A DNA stretch of 27,993 nt from an uncultured Gemmatimonadales bacterium (lineage in GTDB: Bacteria > Gemmatimonadota > Gemmatimonadetes > Gemmatimonadales > GWC2-71-9). The notes beneath the pieces were generated by a model, which saw nothing but the letters and a program-made list of their open reading frames with translations, was not told the origin of the DNA and did no database searches. The stretch spans positions 1 to 27,993 of the forward strand of contig CAWJIM010000015.1 in the NCBI GenBank assembly GCA_963842945.1, written 5' to 3'. Each line of letters starts with the position of its first letter. Within the stretch, counting starts at the first letter, position 1. A program made the position numbers and the translations under genes. This document shows positions 13,075-27,065 of the stretch, piece by piece.

Positions 13075-13875
13075 TCATCCCAACGGCACCACCTCGGCTC
13101 TCGCCAGCCGTTCTCCGATGAAGCGCGATCCAACCTGCCGAAATCTGGCTTCGTCGTCGCTCACCACAAATCGATGGTGTACTGCCGCGGCGGCGGTCGC
13201 CTCCAGCTGCTTGTCCTTCAGAATCGATTCCAGGGCCGAGGCAGTGGCCTGACCACTGTCGATCAGCTTCACCTCGGGACCCATCACCCGTTGGAGTAGT
13301 GGCTTCAACAAGGGGTAATGGGTGCAACCCAGCACCAGGGCGCGAACACAGGCCTGCCGCAGCTCGCGGAGATAGTCGGCGGCCACCAGCTCGGTCGCAG
13401 GATGATCGAACCAGCCTTCCTCTACAAAAGGAACGAAGAGCGGGCAGGCCCGCTGCACCACTGGAGTGCCGGGGGCGAGTGCCTGAATTGCGCGGTTGTA
13501 GGCGTCACTCGCAATCGTTCCGGCGGTGCCAATTACGCCGATCGGCCCGCCGTCGCCCGCAGCCACCGCAGCCCGAGCGCCCGGCTTGATCACACCAAGC
13601 ACCGGCACTGGGGTGGCTTCCTGTAGAGTGCGGAGCGCGTGCGCCGTGCTGGTATTGCAGGCCACCACCACGGCCTTGACGCCCTGGCTCAGTAACCAGT
13701 GAAGGATCTCCAGACTGTAGCGCTTTACTGTCTCCGGCGATTTGGGGCCGTAAGGCACGCGGGCGGTGTCCCCAAAGTAGATGGTGGACTCCTGTGGCAG
13801 GCGCTCGTAGATAGCCCGCGCAACGGTGAGCCCTCCGATACCGGAATCGAAGATGCCGATTGGTGCCGGATTCAT
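13075..13875 (-). CDS. murI: Glutamate racemase
   Basis: IGIFDSGIGGLTV, GDTARVPYGPKS and catalytic ACNTS and LGCTHYP motifs. Confidence 0.98.
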   Translation of the reverse strand: MNPAPIGIFDSGIGGLTVARAIYERLPQESTIYFGDTARVPYGPKSPETVKRYSLEILHWLLSQGVKAVVVACNTSTAHALRTLQEATPVPVLGVIKPGARAAVAAGDGGPIGVIGTAGTIASDAYNRAIQALAPGTPVVQRACPLFVPFVEEGWFDHPATELVAADYLRELRQACVRALVLGCTHYPLLKPLLQRVMGPEVKLIDSGQATASALESILKDKQLEATAAAAVHHRFVVSDDEARFRQVGSRFIGERLARAEVVPLG

Positions 13876-14402
13876 GGTAGCCTTACTGGCAAAGAAACAC
13901 CCGCTCCGGCTCCTCCCGGCACGGCCTCCAGATGGAGGTCGCCGGGAAAATCTGCCAAGTGAGCGGAGATGTAGGCCTCCAGTCCGGCAAGGACATGATT
14001 GAAGCCCAGCAGCACCACCCAGTCTTCATGTTCCTGACGCTTGTCATCCGCCCTGCCGGAGTTAGTCCGTCGCAGATACTCCAGCTCGTGCAGGGTCTTC
14101 AGACTCATGCCAAGGGTGACGCCCTCCCACGCAATAAAGAGTCCCGCCGTGAGCTTCCGGTCCAGGCGGGCCTGACCCCAGCCGGGCAGCAGCAGCGAAC
14201 GCCACAGCGCGGCGGACGGACTGAGGTAGCGGCGAGTCAGCGAGTCCGGCGCGGCCGGGGCCCGAGCAGGCGTGGCGGCGGGCTGTGCCGGACGGGGCTG
14301 CACCTGCGCGGCAAGCTGAGTGGCTGTCAGCGGGCCGAGTAGAGTAATGGAAGCGAGTGCTGCCCGAAAAAGGTGGCGGGAGCGTGTGGGAATCGAACCC
14401 AC
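13872..14402 (-). CDS. Hypothetical exported/membrane protein (DUF5683-like SLLLPGWGQ motif); start appears to lie inside tRNA-Sec
   Basis: SPSAALWRSLLLPGWGQ plus hydrophobic segments. Stop overlaps the murI start (ATGA). Signal-peptide-like TRSRHLFRAALASITLLGPLTATQLAA-Q. Candidate in-frame starts: GTG 14402, ATG 14426, GTG 14504, or GTG downstream of the signal peptide. Confidence 0.75.
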   Translation of the reverse strand: MGSIPTRSRHLFRAALASITLLGPLTATQLAAQVQPRPAQPAATPARAPAAPDSLTRRYLSPSAALWRSLLLPGWGQARLDRKLTAGLFIAWEGVTLGMSLKTLHELEYLRRTNSGRADDKRQEHEDWVVLLGFNHVLAGLEAYISAHLADFPGDLHLEAVPGGAGAGVSLPVRLP

Positions 14403-14471
14403 CGGAGCCGCCGAAGGCGCCTCCATCGCGGTTTTGAAGACCGGCCGAACCACCAGGCCCGATCCGCTCCC
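14374..14471 (-). tRNA. selC: tRNA-Sec (anticodon TCA), CCA encoded
   Basis: 98 nt. Extended acceptor GGGAGCGG/ACGCTCCC, 6-bp D stem CGGGCC-TGGT-GGTTCG, CTTCAAA anticodon loop, long variable arm, GTGGG-TTCGATT-CCCAC T arm, G discriminator plus CCA. Confidence 0.95.
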
Positions 14472-14493
14472 GTATGGAAGGTAAGCCGTGAGC

Positions 14494-14886
14494 TTAACCC
14501 TCACCGCTCACCGCTGCTATCACCTCGATCTCGACCCTGGCACCGCGCGGAAGAGCGGCTACCGCCACCGTTGATCTTGCCGGGCGGTGCTGCCCGAACG
14601 CTCTGCCATAGATCTCGTTCATCGGGGCGAAATCGGCCATGTCAACCAAAAAGACCGTGGTTTTCACGACCTGGGAGAAATCGGTCCCCGCTTCCTTCAA
14701 GATGGCGCGGAGGTTCTCCAAGGCACGCGTCGTCTGTTCCGTGATCCCACCTGGGACGAGCTCACCCTTGGCCGGGTCGAGTGCCACCTGGCCGGCGGTA
14801 AATAGAAAACCGTTGGCGATGACGCCCTGGCTGTAGGGCCCTATCGCCTGGGGGGCTCCCGCCGTGCTGACGAAGTCGAGCGGCAT
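14494..14886 (-). CDS. ridA: RidA/YjgF family reactive intermediate deaminase
   Basis: APQAIGPYSQG, AGQVALDP, VVKTTVFL, PARSTVAVAALP and VEIE motifs. Confidence 0.95.
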   Translation of the reverse strand: MPLDFVSTAGAPQAIGPYSQGVIANGFLFTAGQVALDPAKGELVPGGITEQTTRALENLRAILKEAGTDFSQVVKTTVFLVDMADFAPMNEIYGRAFGQHRPARSTVAVAALPRGARVEIEVIAAVSGEG

Positions 14887-16584: not shown

Positions 16585-17361
16585 TCAGGAGTCGGGAGCG
16601 GAGACCTGCAGTTGAAACACCCGGCGCGCGTTCTGGCCGGTCACCTGGATCAATTCGTCAACCGGCATCTCTCGGATCAGCGCGATCCGCTCCGCCACGT
16701 GACGCACAAAGGCGGGCTCGTTGCGCTTTCCCCGATGCGGAACCGGAGCGAGATAGGGACCGTCGGTCTCGAGCAGCAGCCGGTCGATTGGGGTCTCGAG
16801 AATGGCGTCGTCCAGCCGCCAGTTCTTGAAGGTGACCATTCCGCTGAACGACACATAGTGGCGGAGGACCAGCCCCGCTCGCAAGAGCACCATGCCGCTG
16901 CTGAAGGAATGCAGGATGGCCGGCACGTCGGGATGGCCGGCCAGAATGGCGGCAACATCGTCATCCGCTTCTCTCGCATGAATGACAGCCGGCTTCTTTG
17001 CCTCCGCCGCCAGCGCGAGCTGAGCCTCGAACGCCCGGTGCTGCAGTGAACGAGGCGAATGATCGTAGTGGAAATCGAGACCGATCTCCCCCACAGCCAC
17101 GATGCGGGGGTCCTGCAGCAGCTCCCGGAGCCACTGTTCCGAATCCGCGCTCCAGGCGTGGGCATCGTGGGGATGAATGCCGGCGGTGGCGGCCAGCTTC
17201 GGCTCAACCGCAGCCATCGCCAGCGCCGCGTCCGCGCGCTCGCGTGACTCGCCGATCACCACGATCCGCGCAACTCCGGCAGCCCAGGCCCGCTCCAGTA
17301 CCTGGGGGAGATCCGGAGCGTAGGCAGGATCCGCCAGATGGCAGTGGGTGTCGATTAGCAA
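16585..17361 (-). CDS. tatD: TatD family hydrolase/DNase
   Basis: [36 protein letters not shown] and GKRNEP motifs. TTG start. Confidence 0.95.
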
Positions 17362-17473
17362 AGCGGGGCAGCGGGGAGGCGGGGCAGCGGGGCGGTAGGT
17401 TCAATTCGAAATCGAGGCTCTGGGTGAGAGGGCACCTGGCTGCCCCTCTGCCCCGCCGCCCGCCTGCCCCGCT
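17362..17473. repeat. Inverted-repeat element built from 4 x GCGGGGCA-like octamers on each arm
   Basis: 17363-17394 GCGGGGCA GCGGGGAG GCGGGGCA GCGGGGCG; 17441-17472 TGCCCCTC TGCCCCGC CGCCCGCC TGCCCCGC. 27/32 complementary, 46-nt spacer. Confidence 0.85.
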
Positions 17474-17476
17474 GAT

Positions 17477-18461
17477 TCACCCGACGGTCTGTGGCTTCCG
17501 GCTGGGCGCCGCGGCGGGGGCTTCTTCGTAGCCAGGTGCCCACGAGCGGCGGGACCGGCCAGCGCTGCTCGATGGCCATCAGAACCGGTGAGGCGATGTA
17601 GATCGAAGAGAAAGTCCCGGTGAAGACACCGAAGAGCATCACCAGGGCGAACGGTCTGATCACCTCGCCGCCGAAGATCGCCAGCGCAAGCAGCGTGGCC
17701 ATGGTGGTGCCGTGGGTCAGTACGCTTCGGGGCAGCGTCTCGTTGATCGAGCGATTGAGAATCTGGTCGAATCGTTCCTGCTTGTGCTTGTGCAGGTTCT
17801 CCCGGACCCGGTCGAAGATGATGATGGTGTCGTTGAGCGAATAGCCCACCATCGAGAGCACTGCCGCCACCACCGTGAGGCTGACTTCCAGGCGCATGAA
17901 CCCGATGAACGCAATGGTCGCAAGAATGTCGTGAGCGGTAGCGATGATCGCGGCGAGCCCGAAGCGCCACTCGAAGCGGTATGCCAGGTAGGCCAGCACC
18001 GCAAAGAACGACAGGAATATCGCCAAGAACGCCTTCTGCCGAAGCTCGCCGCCCACCTTGGGGCCCACCGCCTCGGTTCGCACAACGGTGTAGCTTGCCC
18101 TCGCCCAGGACATGATCCAGCGCATGAGCCACCGCCTGCGCCGTGGCCTGGGTGTCGTTGGCATCGCTGCCCGGCTTGGCCACCCGGGCCCGGATGACGT
18201 ACTCGTTATCGGCGCCGAAATTCTGAATCTCGGCGCCGTGGAGTCCCTGCTCGTCGAGCCCGGTCCGGACGACTCAGCCACATCCACCGGCTGCCTGGCT
18301 CTGGATCTGCACAGGGTGCCGCCAGTGAACTCGATGCTGTAGTTGAGCCCCTTGATCAGCAGGAACAGCAGACCCGGGCACAGAATCAGAGCGGTCAGGC
18401 CGTAGGCGTAGTGCCGCAGCGCGATGAAGTCGTAGTTGGCGTTGGAAAAGAGTCGCAGCAT
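17477..18461 (-). CDS. secF: Protein translocase subunit SecF (several frameshifts as sequenced)
   Basis: [57 protein letters not shown] and GTFSSIYIA motifs. The periplasmic part jumps frame at about 18315-18270 and about 18095. Probable true end ...[13 protein letters not shown] at 17477. Confidence 0.92.
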
Positions 18462-18462
18462 G

Positions 18463-20175
18463 TCAGATACTCAGGGTTGACAGGGCCGGCCGGCGACTGA
18501 GCCAGATCATGTAGAAGGTACGGGTGACGAAGATCGAGGTGATCATCGAGGCGATGATACCCAGAATCAGGGTAACGGCAAAGCCCTTCACCGGGCCGGT
18601 GCCGAACTGGAATAGGAACAGGGCGGTCAAGCACCGTGCAGACGTTGGAGTCGACGATGGCGTTCATCGCGTGGCGGAAGCCTTCGTCGATGGCCAGCCG
18701 CACCGTCTTGCCGTGCATCAGCTCTTCTCGAATTCGCTCGAAAATCAGCACGTTGTTGTCCACCGCGATACCGATGGATAGCACGATGCCGGCCAGGCCC
18801 GGCAGCGTGAGGGTCGCACTGATCATCGCCAGCGCGCCCAGCGTGAACAGGATGATACAGCCGCCAGCGCGACGACCGCGAGTGCCCCGCTAGCGCGATA
18901 GTACACCGAGCATGATCAGGACCACCATGGCGGTACCGACTAATCCGGCGGTGATGCCCTTGTGAATGGAGTCGCTGCCCAGACTGGCGCCCACCTGCCG
19001 CTCCTCCACGATCTTGAGCGGGAATGGGCAGTGCGCCGGCCTTGAGGGTGAGGGCCAGGTCCTGGGCTTCCTGCAGGCTCTTGCCACCCAGGGTGATCTG
19101 ACCGTTACGCCCGATGCGGCTCTGAATGACGGGGGGTCTACCCTGCACTCTGCCATCCAGCAGGATTGCCATGTAGTCACCCACGTGCTTCCCGGTCTCG
19201 TCACCGAACCGCCGTCCGCCGGCACGGTCCAGCTCGAAGGTGACGATGGGTCCATTGGTCAGCGGATCGAGCTGAGCCTGCGCATTCACTAGATTCGCGC
19301 CGGTAACGATGCTCTTGTCCTCGAGGGCATAGAGGAAGCGTACCGGCTGAACTCCGACGCTCGTGGGCGCGGCGCTCCACCGCAACACCACACCCCGGGG
19401 CAGCTGGCGGGCCACCGCCGGCAGATTGAAGAGACTGTCCACCCGGGGAAACGCGGTCTCCGGCACCGCATATTCGCCCGGCACTCCGCCGGGGCCCGCC
19501 GGCTGAATCAACCCGCTGAGCACGCCGCCGGGCACCGGCGTGGTGTCCTGAGCCGCGCTGTCTCGCCCAGTGGTATCCTTGCGGCTCTTGGCCTTGCGAC
19601 TGGTGTCCGGCTTGGCGCTGTCCTTCGGGGCGGTGCGCGACGTGTCGCCACCCAGGAGCTGTTGTACGGCGGAGGGCTTCTCCGGCTGCAGCCTGACCCT
19701 TGATGCCCATGCTCTTGAGGGTCCGGTCCATGGCGGGCAGAGCCTTCTCCAGGGCCCCGGTCTCATTGGTGATCTTGAATTCGAGGAATGCGCTCCTCTG
19801 CACGATGCCCTTGGCCCGGGCAGGATCGGTGATGCCGGCCAGCTCGACGACGATCCGATTGTCGCCCACCTTCTGGACCAGTGGCTCCTCGACCCCGAAC
19901 TCGTCAATCCGCTTCCGGAGCACCGTTAGGGCGAGATCGACGTCCTTCTTGGGATCGGCCGACACCTGCTTGGATTGATCCAGCTCCAGGGCCAGGTGCA
20001 TCCCGCCCTGGAGATCCAGCCCACGCTTCAGCGGCACCCGGGTCACCACGGTGTCGCGCATGACCCCGCTGGGACCGCGCTCGCGGATGGTCACATTCCG
20101 GGGAAAGAGGAAGTAGACCGAGGCGGCCACCAGTGCGGCGATCAGGAGCAATCGGGAACGAATCGAGGCGAACAT
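18463..20175 (-). CDS. secD: Protein translocase subunit SecD (several frameshifts as sequenced)
   Basis: [77 protein letters not shown] and [12 protein letters not shown] are spread over different frames, with shifts near 19685, 19020, 18905-18860 and 18630. Confidence 0.93.
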
Positions 20176-25383: not shown

Positions 25384-25689
25384 TCAGGAGCGAACGGCTG
25401 CCAGCTGCACAATGCCACTGGCCAATGCGCGATCCCGTACGCCTACCGCCATGACCGGCGGCTTCCCCAATTGCGCGCCGATCGCTGCGGCACGCGGTCC
25501 CGGCATCAGCTGCACCCCCTTGGCACGCGCCAGCCGGACCACTTTGTCGACCGCGCGTGGACTGGCGTCTTCCGCCACGACCACGCACCAGCACTTTCCT
25601 GCCTGCAATTCCCGACGAACCGCGTCCACCCCGACCACGACCCGTCCTCCGCGATAGCCCAGCCCGAGGAGGCCCAACAGCCCGCTCAT
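25384..25689 (-). CDS. L7Ae/L30e family RNA-binding protein (YlxQ-like)
   Basis: LLGLLGLGYRGGRVVVG, VVVAEDAS and IGAQLGK motifs. Located between nusA and infB. Confidence 0.9.
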   Translation of the reverse strand: MSGLLGLLGLGYRGGRVVVGVDAVRRELQAGKCWCVVVAEDASPRAVDKVVRLARAKGVQLMPGPRAAAIGAQLGKPPVMAVGVRDRALASGIVQLAAVRS

Positions 25690-27006
25690 GCCTTGGGCCG
25701 GGTTTCCTCTCCGCTGTCCTCATCCGTGAGCTCGGACACGAACGCCATGAGCTGGTCCGACGTTTCCCCCGTCATACCCGGAATCTTCGCGATGTCTTCC
25801 CGCTCCAGGTCGAGGATGTCGTTGAGGGTCTTGTAACCGGCGCTCTCCAGGATTCCGGTCAGCTCGGGAGAGAGACCCTTGAGCTCGCTGAGCGGCACCT
25901 TGCCCGCCATTTCCTCCTCCGGAGGCAAGGGAGCGAACAGCGGACCTTCGCCTCCCCGCTCGAGCCACTCGCGACTGGAGTACAGATCGATCTTCCAGCC
26001 GGTGAGCTCCGAAGCCAGCCGAACGTTCTGGCCGTTTCGTCCGATTGCCAGCGAAAGCTGGTCTTCGTCCACCACCGCCTGAATCGTCTTGGCCTCGGGA
26101 TCGGAGAACACTTTGGCGACGCGGGCGGGGGCCAGCGCCAGGCGGGCGAACCGCTCCGGTCAGGAGACCAGGGAACGATATCGATCCGCTCGCCGCCGAG
26201 CTCATTGACGACGGCCTGAACCCGGGAGCCCTTCAAGCCGACACAAGCGCCCACCGGATCGATGGCGTCGTCGCGGGAAATTACCGCCACCTTGGTGCGG
26301 CTTCCGACCTCTCGGGCGATAGCGCGAATCTCGACGACCTGCTGCTGGATCTCGGGCACTTCAAGCTTGAAGAGAGCCTTCACGAACAGAGGGTCGCCCC
26401 GGGAGAGGATGAGGCGCGGACCCTTGGGCGTCTCTTCCAGACGCTTGAGCACGGCGCGGATGGTGTCGCCCTGATGGAAGTGCTCCCGGTGATTCTGCTC
26501 CCGGTAGGGCACGATGGCTTCGGCCTCCCGGAATTTGTTCAGCATGATGACCAGCTTGCCGCGCTCGATCTGCTGGACTTCTCCCGACAGAAGCTCGCCC
26601 ACCTTCGAGGTGAACTCCTCCCGGATCCGGGCCCGCTCGCCTTCGCGCACCCGCTGGATGATCCGCTGTTTGGCCGCCTGAACCGCCAGCCGGCCAAAGT
26701 CGACAAACGGAACCTCTTCCTCGAGCATGTCGCCCACCTGGAAGTCGGGATCTTCGTACTGCGCCTCTTCCAGGGTGATCTGCGCGCTGGGATCTTCCAC
26801 CGTCTCCACCACCTGGCGGAGACGCACCACCTTGATGGTACCCTGCAGCTCATCGACGCTGAGCTCGAAGCGGACGTTGGGGCCGAATTTGCGACTAAGG
26901 CGGCGTGAATGCCGTCGCGCAGCAGCTCCAGCAGATCGGAACGCTCGAGTTGTTTTGTCGTGGTCAGCTCGCGAAACGCGGCCAACATTTCAGTCGAACC
27001 TGCCAT
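25686..27006 (-). CDS. nusA: Transcription termination/antitermination factor NusA (two frameshifts as sequenced)
   Basis: [14 protein letters not shown] start, [51 protein letters not shown] and [24 protein letters not shown] motifs. Frame changes near 26895 and 26160. Confidence 0.96.
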
Positions 27007-27065
27007 CCATTCACTCCATAGTGGGCGCATCCGGCGCCCTGCAGTGTGTGGGACGCGTGTGCGTC

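Follow-up and report, generated by a model that had tools for sequence, protein, structure and literature searches.

The window, meaning the whole 27,993-nucleotide (nt) stretch of DNA that was analysed, comes from an uncultured Gemmatimonadales bacterium (genome G000). Its minus strand carries, in order of transcription, ridA, the gene for the selenocysteine (Sec) transfer RNA (tRNA-Sec, selC), a gene encoding a DUF5683-like protein, and the glutamate racemase gene murI. The tRNA-Sec gene is read in the same direction as the DUF5683 gene and in frame with it, which raises the question of where translation of the DUF5683 gene starts. The features of the locus are as follows.

14494..14886, minus strand: ridA, RidA/L-PSP family (PF01042, 4e-44), stop codon TAA at 14496-14494
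14480..14512, minus strand: short heptamer-repeat hairpin spanning the end of ridA, from folding prediction
14502..14504, minus strand: GTG, the most likely start codon according to the frame comparison, 11 nt before the end of the ridA stop
14478..14483, minus strand: -10-like box TACCTT, 6 nt 5' of G+1 of the tRNA, putative tRNA promoter
14374..14471, minus strand: tRNA-Sec gene (selC), 98 nt, CCA encoded, found by ARAGORN and Rfam RF01852
14451..14453, minus strand: D-loop GTG, in frame, alternative start implying a 49-residue signal
14420..14426, minus strand: variable-arm ATG (14426-14424) with GGAGG (14424-14420), alternative start or ribosome-binding site
14400..14402, minus strand: T-stem GTG, in frame, alternative start implying a 32-residue signal
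14307..14372, minus strand: post-CCA portion of the predicted signal peptide, with a hydrophobic stretch, cleavage after LAA and no canonical start
13872..14306, minus strand: predicted mature DUF5683 protein, with a Pro/Ala linker, two long helices and a C-terminal beta hairpin
13075..13875, minus strand: murI, glutamate racemase, last gene of the minus-strand run

The tRNA-Sec has the anticodon TCA (ARAGORN) and scores 70 bits against a gathering threshold of 47 (Rfam RF01852, model positions 1-91). It begins 22 nt past the ridA stop and shares 33 codons, the junction codon counted, with the frame of the DUF5683 gene. The open reading frame (ORF) 14504-13872 is open across the whole tRNA-Sec and runs 166 codons beyond the CCA. 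The initial annotation of this DNA had given the same distance from ridA and had placed a GTG at 14402, an ATG at 14426, a GGAGG at 14424-14420 and an ATGA overlap of the DUF5683 stop with the murI start (13875-13872); all of these are where it put them. It had also stated that no ATG, GTG or TTG lies in frame between the CCA and the predicted cleavage site, which is correct for the 22 codons from the CCA-C codon to the mature Q (14306). The same 22 codons contain the near-cognates ATT and CTG, within the hydrophobic stretch. Two further in-frame starts that it left unweighed are the D-loop GTG 14453 and GTG 14504, the latter located upstream of the tRNA within the last 11 nt of ridA. The stop codon of fhs overlaps the start of ridA (TGATG).

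The acceptor stem of bacterial tRNA-Sec usually has 8 pairs; the one in the window folds with 7 standard pairs. Position 87 of the tRNA (window 14385) is a conserved unpaired A beside the T-stem, present in 69 of the 70 tRNAs compared.

The match of the protein to DUF5683 (PF18935) reaches 30 bits against a cut-off of 26.7, with the best stretch confined to residues 94-113, and Atlas matches (0.94-0.97) are to DUF5683 clusters. A sequence search of the PDB gave no match. The structure model has a predicted local distance difference test (pLDDT) score of 85 and only generic helical-hairpin matches (best Z 9.0). The signal pattern, which comprises a basic n-region, a hydrophobic stretch and small residues before the cleavage site, was recognized by eye and with a hydropathy window across the loci rather than with a predictor. 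The product is predicted to be a helical hairpin, exported or in the membrane, with a beta hairpin at its C-terminus. Relatives without a tRNA upstream keep the DUF5683 gene with a normal start; therefore, judged by gene content, the protein is not tied to selenium.

The proposed coupling of the DUF5683 gene to murI is borne out by comparison: an RTGA overlap (ATGA or GTGA) of the DUF5683 stop and the murI start is present in 86 of 86 loci of the genus, and four of the 86 have a Shine-Dalgarno (SD)-like 4-mer before murI. MurI supplies D-glutamate for peptidoglycan. In a third family of loci (L095-L103), the DUF5683-murI overlap is kept without a tRNA upstream; the upstream gene there resembles, by eye, a diacylglycerol-kinase-family protein.

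An assembly error at the junction was ruled out by six close relatives (L002, L034-L038) with identical junction length and frame. Elsewhere in the window, secD, secF and nusA (named by eye from their translations) are broken over several frames (17355-20175 and 25686-27030, minus strand); these breaks, and that in selA on contig C2, are probably assembly indels. The genome G000 contains a second, diverged and indel-rich ridA-selC-DUF5683-murI copy (C1:148947-150700), and tRNA-Pro(tgg) and transfer-messenger RNA (tmRNA) are likewise duplicated, probably from a contaminating sister strain (contamination 6%). The C1 copy is out of frame at the junction and has indels in ridA, the DUF5683 gene and murI, and it was left out of the scoring of junction frames.

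Two junction states in the genus

The gene was found in 92 of 103 genomes of the genus, and 90 loci were taken from 89 of them; three loci in which the match is interrupted by a contig end were omitted. A tRNA lies upstream in 89 loci, of which the frameshifted L090-L093 were dropped, leaving 85 for the frame counts. Many of the loci are close kin with common repeat types, so that counts of them overstate the number of independent cases, which tells against the start at the ridA stop favoured below.

The distance from the CCA to the predicted cleavage site is bimodal among the 85 scorable loci: it is 95-130 nt in 41 long loci and at most 85 nt in 44 short ones. Long loci have their own start in 40 of 41 cases, with signals of 22-29 residues. 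These starts are usually preceded at about 10 nt by a GGGA/GGAG-like motif, and a strict SD 4-mer is present in 12 of the 40. Relative to the tRNA, the long loci are spread over all three frames (15/13/13), and the tree shows 14 changes of frame among them. In the short loci the spacer is lost, and 39 of the 44 are in the frame of the window, four are in a second frame and one has its own ATG. The expectation that frame continuity from the tRNA into the downstream gene would be conserved among related selC loci is therefore upheld in the short loci. Orthologues with a normal start after the CCA, which the initial annotation had named as evidence against an overlap, exist in the long state; in the short state the spacer that would hold such a start is gone.

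The openness of the frame across the tRNA, which the initial annotation had noted, was confirmed as a fact and rejected as evidence of coding. The frame of the window is open through the tRNA in 89 of 89 loci; this alone proves nothing because the other two frames are open in 89 and 75 of the 89 tRNAs.

The stretch after the CCA of the short loci varies, by its pattern of differences, like coding DNA. Differences at the three codon positions number 65/41/97 in this stretch, 77/57/112 in own-start signals and 21/44/21 in spacers (overlapping pairs). A canonical codon after the CCA that would give a signal of at least 18 residues is present in only three of the 39 window-frame short loci. Coding DNA thus extends back as far as the CCA, and on this comparison the start of the DUF5683 gene very likely lies before it. 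The hydrophobic stretch, the cleavage motif and the frame are retained across nine different lengths.

Two explanations place the start after the CCA. In the first, a near-cognate codon (CTG, ATC, ATT or ACG) soon after the CCA would be used, there would be no overlap, and the shared frame would reflect deletion end points and descent. It fits the length of the post-CCA stretch, 20-28 codons with a median of 25, which matches that of a full own-start signal (median 26), and in 34 of the 39 loci a signal of at least 15 residues could begin at a canonical or near-cognate codon. However, neither kind of codon gives a signal of at least 18 residues in 18 of the 39 loci, or of 20 in 24 of them. The first codon past the junction is variable (CTC, CCC, CTT, CCT, CCG or CCA), with no conserved position or codon, the GGGA/GGAG motif of the own starts is gone, and a near-cognate start leaves the locking of the frame upstream of the tRNA unexplained. 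We consider this explanation improbable. In the second, the signal would be vestigial, and either a canonical codon further on would serve as the start (GTG 14303, VQPRP, in the window) or the gene would not be translated from this region. In 29 of the 39 loci, at least one canonical codon does lie after the CCA and ahead of the conserved core. By contrast, ten of the 39, including the closest relatives L002, L036 and L038, have none, and the later codons are scattered in position while the hydrophobic stretch, the cleavage motif and the frame are all kept. The later GTG, which the initial annotation had listed as a possible start, is not conserved among the loci, and we consider this second explanation very improbable.

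The short state corresponds to seven changes on a quick DUF5683 and MurI tree of 93 rows. A single clade for the short loci in the window's frame (frame 2) was rejected with an approximately unbiased test p-value (p-AU) of 9e-6 in a subset of 36 rows, 15 of them short frame-2. By these trees, the overlap state arose more than once.

Position of the start codon

The frame comparison favours, to a modest degree, GTG 14504 as the start of the DUF5683 gene: ribosomes that have terminated at ridA would likely re-initiate there and translate the whole tRNA. An open in-frame start from -15 to +12 nt of the ridA stop is present in 28 of 32 main-clade loci and in three of 64 cases in the other frames; the same region of the long loci has such a start in 3/33 and 5/66, respectively. 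The contrast was stable over all five interval sizes tried. When any upstream start within 100 nt is counted, the short loci have one in 39 of 43 cases (17/86 in other frames) and the long loci in 14 of 40 (25/80). In E. coli reporters, second genes that lack an SD are translated by re-initiation, which decays with distance (PMC3592434).

Heptamer hairpins at the end of ridA place a GTG every 7 nt, and the frame of the last GTG of the run was therefore tested as a null for the repeats. This GTG is in frame in 28 of the 32 scored rows and at eight of the 12 distinct distances (p about 0.02), in a count of 35 rows that includes three without a run, two frameshifted loci and the C1 copy. Comparable hairpins elsewhere in the genome have lengths of 10/6/12 modulo 3, without such a bias. 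Between ridA and the tRNA there is one stop codon in the frame of the gene and 36 in the other frames. Read-through from ridA or a fusion with it was rejected, as the gap lengths are distributed 14/12/6 modulo 3.

The genome G000 has 41 runs of such heptamer-repeat inverted hairpins, in which forward units of the GTGA type are followed by a loop and by reverse TCAC/TTAC units. The type of repeat unit at the end of ridA differs among sister genomes, and the forward run provides the stop codon of ridA.

A held-out set of 29 metagenome loci was fetched later; 21 carry the tRNA, and 13 of these are short loci lacking a usable start of their own, one of them so classed by eye. Among the held-out short loci with ridA, a coupled start is present in the used frame in 12 of 12 and in other frames in one of 24, with L174 classed by eye. 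Ten of them repeat known types, and the new cases, L173 and L174, are both in the second frame. This second frame provides the cleanest test, since in it no usable start occurs within the tRNA. In all nine second-frame loci an upstream start lies at the stop of the upstream gene: it is TGATG in six, ATGA with a GGAGG in L082, GTGA in L173 and a repeat GTG in L174.

Several observations weigh against a start at the ridA stop. The six TGATG loci are close kin, and the control for stop depletion is not clean, being skewed in the long loci as well (1 versus 10). An upstream in-frame start is absent in L040, L042 and L070, lies about 20 nt from the ridA stop in L053 and L048, and in five clade-B loci consists of GTGs at -48 (three loci), -99 and -108, uncoupled from ridA. 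Strict GTGA overlap is found in only 5 of 32 loci, most starts lying either 3 nt beyond the end of the stop or 11 nt short of it. Opening GTG 14504 costs 22 kcal/mol without an upstream ribosome. The implied signal peptides have 60-86 residues, compared with 22-29 in the long loci, and the added N-terminal stretch has a weak codon-position bias (289/270/336). The extra conservation of the tRNA in the main clade falls on positions 46-98 (13 versus 61 changes) and not on positions 1-45 (16 versus 25). For the TGATG loci there is the further caveat that RNase P may favour a U preceding G+1.

Five loci (L025, L028, L076, L084 and L087) carry a conserved insert of 142-158 nt between the ridA stop and the tRNA, and L090 and L091 have a shortened form of it. 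The insert contains a TATATT box and, in three of the five, a GGGA motif before a GTG at -48; it may be a separate promoter with a leader, or a small RNA.

The conservation of positions 46-98 fits better with initiation inside the tRNA, either at the T-stem GTG 14402 with the GGAGG 14424-14420, the inner variable-arm hairpin being looped out to act as a structured spacer, or at ATG 14426. The main short clade has 13 changes at positions 46-69 and none at 70-98, versus 53 and 8 in the long loci, on branch lengths of 3.33 and 5.97 and with regions chosen after the data had been seen. At position 52, in the GGAGG, there is one change versus 12, and at position 47, in the ATG, two versus 10. A start at the T-stem GTG would give signals of 30-38 residues, nearest to the norm of 22-29, and an internal start accounts for the exceptions L040, L042 and L070. 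However, it does not explain why an in-frame start at the end of ridA is kept across many changes of length, and the second-frame loci have no start in the tRNA to use. The variable-arm ATG is lost in L040, L058 and clade B. The GGAGG is 17 nt from the GTG and paired in the variable arm, whereas the GGAG peak of the genome is at 4-8 nt. Opening any start within the tRNA would cost 16-24 kcal/mol, compared with a median of 15 for own starts; for the internal initiation proposed here the cost is 16-22 kcal/mol. Initiation inside the tRNA is a less likely but serious possibility on this balance; it could also accompany the upstream start, on a short transcript. The proposal of the initial annotation that coding starts before the CCA is supported, but its placing of that start inside the tRNA is not favoured, the comparative signal being stronger at the ridA stop. 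Leaderless initiation inside the tRNA was rejected, as no TANNNT is read in the sequence 6 nt before ATG46 or GTG70.

In a sister family (L104-L111, L119-L148 and L178-L237), tRNA-Sec lies 5' of the same gene in most loci. Of its 97 loci 85 were scored, after exclusion of duplicates, of loci that lack the gene and of one locus in which no cleavage site was called; at least two of the scored rows (L110 and L203) are mis-called. No own start is present in 26 of the 85, in frames 9/8/9. In only 14 of these 26 does a start upstream of the tRNA within 30 nt occur in the used frame, versus 1/52 in the other frames. Two further results from this family tell against the start at the ridA stop: an upstream start is also present in 20 of the 59 own-start loci (Fisher p 0.10), and an in-frame start inside the tRNA is present in all 26 loci without their own start, versus 28/52 in other frames. 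The latter would favour internal initiation; however, 49 of the 59 own-start loci also have an in-frame internal start, and an initial look at the family (internal starts in 8/8, background 20/23) was not discriminating. The upstream and internal routes may both be in use. In L111/L120 and L123 a stop codon in the D-loop is directly followed by an ATG, a possible internal start.

Transcripts and proposed mechanism

Of 46 short loci, 25 have a TANNNT box in front of the tRNA at a distance of 5-8 nt; of 40 long loci, 31 have one at 5-12 nt. In G000, TANNNT has a genome-wide peak 6 nt before start codons (45 versus about 7), beside an ordinary SD peak at 4-8 nt, which is a sign of leaderless transcripts in the lineage. 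The -10-like box in front of the tRNA likely drives a short transcript of its own; a sigma-70 consensus scan found no full sigma-70 promoter. In rhizosphere RNA (three runs of one study, 5-8% of words, contigs only), one near-identical contig covers the DUF5683-murI junction, and none of the 24 RNA pieces listed, of 29, extends over the CCA junction by 31 letters in both directions.

The selA gene is present in G000, split by frameshifts, and in 94 of 103 genomes of the genus (93/102 without the unpublished G065), including 44 of the 46 near-complete ones. Both selB and selD are present in five of five tested genomes; the selB of G000 is a partial match under the cut-off, on another contig than the tRNA-Sec. 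In four of the five, G000 included, selD contains an in-frame TGA. Given these Sec genes and the TGA within selD, the tRNA-Sec is, by gene content, needed by the genome, and the idea of a relic tRNA kept only as messenger RNA was rejected.

The sequence comparison shows the loss of the gene's own spacer, ribosome-binding site and start, a frame locked on both sides of the tRNA, several origins and an overlap with murI. For the start at the ridA stop, the following sequence of events is proposed. The hairpin 14480..14512 is predicted to bury GTG 14504 (about -21 kcal/mol), and the preceding repeat unit has a weak anti-SD match (-7.6). Ribosomes terminating at ridA would melt this hairpin and then re-initiate. 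Elongating ribosomes would unwind the tRNA on the long operon RNA, and no initiation within the folded tRNA would be needed. The tRNA would encode the front of a 66-residue leader that is cleaved after LAA, and the mature protein would thus be the same as in relatives with a normal start. Coupling of murI, which mostly has no SD, to the end of the DUF5683 gene would provide the selection that keeps the frame open. Mature tRNA-Sec would come mostly from the short transcript of the -10 box, or from operon RNA that is cut instead of translated.

One RNA molecule gives either tRNA or protein, not both; the cell need not choose. We read the arrangement as a tolerated compaction produced by repeated deletion of the spacer and not as a dedicated switch. 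The initial annotation had suggested that folding and processing of the tRNA gate the membrane protein and possibly MurI; such a gate is conceivable, yet half of the genus carries these genes in a non-overlapping arrangement, and the box suggests a separate tRNA transcript. A stronger form of the idea is that maturation and translation compete, with cleavage by RNase P and at the 3' end uncoupling murI from ridA and so tying MurI output to tRNA processing, and that tRNA genes are recurrently recruited as fronts of signal peptides in the order. We regard this form as doubtful. If it were true, processing of the Sec tRNA would be linked to the supply of peptidoglycan.

Relation to known systems

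Annotation pipelines work on the assumption that no tRNA gene overlaps a protein gene on the same strand. No report of a ridA-selC-DUF5683-murI locus was found in the literature searched, a search that left subscription journals mostly outside, and supplements too. The locus offers a natural experiment on ribosomes versus tRNA-processing enzymes on one transcript, and on the length of leader that export tolerates.

In tmRNA, one RNA likewise has tRNA-like and mRNA-like parts, but its ORF is contained in the mature molecule and ribosomes reach it by template switching. The ORF of the DUF5683 gene, by contrast, extends beyond the CCA, and a single molecule can serve only one of the two roles. 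The tmRNA genes of G000 are located elsewhere. None of the other listed tRNAs of G000 adjoins, by eye, a comparable start-less exported protein.

The locus resembles coupling by termination and re-initiation, as described in PMC3592434, in its SD-poor starts beside a stop and its ATGA, GTGA and TGATG overlaps; unlike in ordinary coupling, the coupled ORF begins with a complete tRNA gene. In the mitochondrion of Armadillidium vulgare, tRNA-Lys is nested in cox1 in direct orientation, and alternative processing has been proposed (as cited in PMC8124441). That case differs in belonging to a compact organelle genome and in involving no signal peptide, whereas the genome here is that of a free-living bacterium of about 4 Mb.

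The single bacterial precedent found in print is a prediction for selB: selC is nested in or overlaps selB in Alphaproteobacteria, some Gammaproteobacteria and Nitrospirae (Mukai 2021, PMC8124441), which is repeated in a 2026 review (PMC13188914). As in those loci, a whole tRNA-Sec lies on the coding strand of an ORF (the whole overlap here resting on the start at GTG 14504), the stop of the host gene overlaps the next start, the trait is conserved but lost in some kin, and an either-tRNA-or-protein logic is proposed. In the selB loci, the tRNA, of mostly 96 or 93 nt, encodes a C-terminal extension of SelB, which is its partner in Sec insertion. The tRNA of 98 nt described here instead occupies the 5' end of a gene for an unrelated membrane protein; there it falls within the predicted signal peptide and replaces a lost start region, with several origins and at least two frames, upstream of murI. 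What sets the locus apart is the probable overlap at the start of a gene, the matched relatives without it, the several origins and the cell-wall gene downstream. In its organization, the DUF5683 locus works like a selB-nested selC but is no member of that group, having another host gene and using the other end of it.

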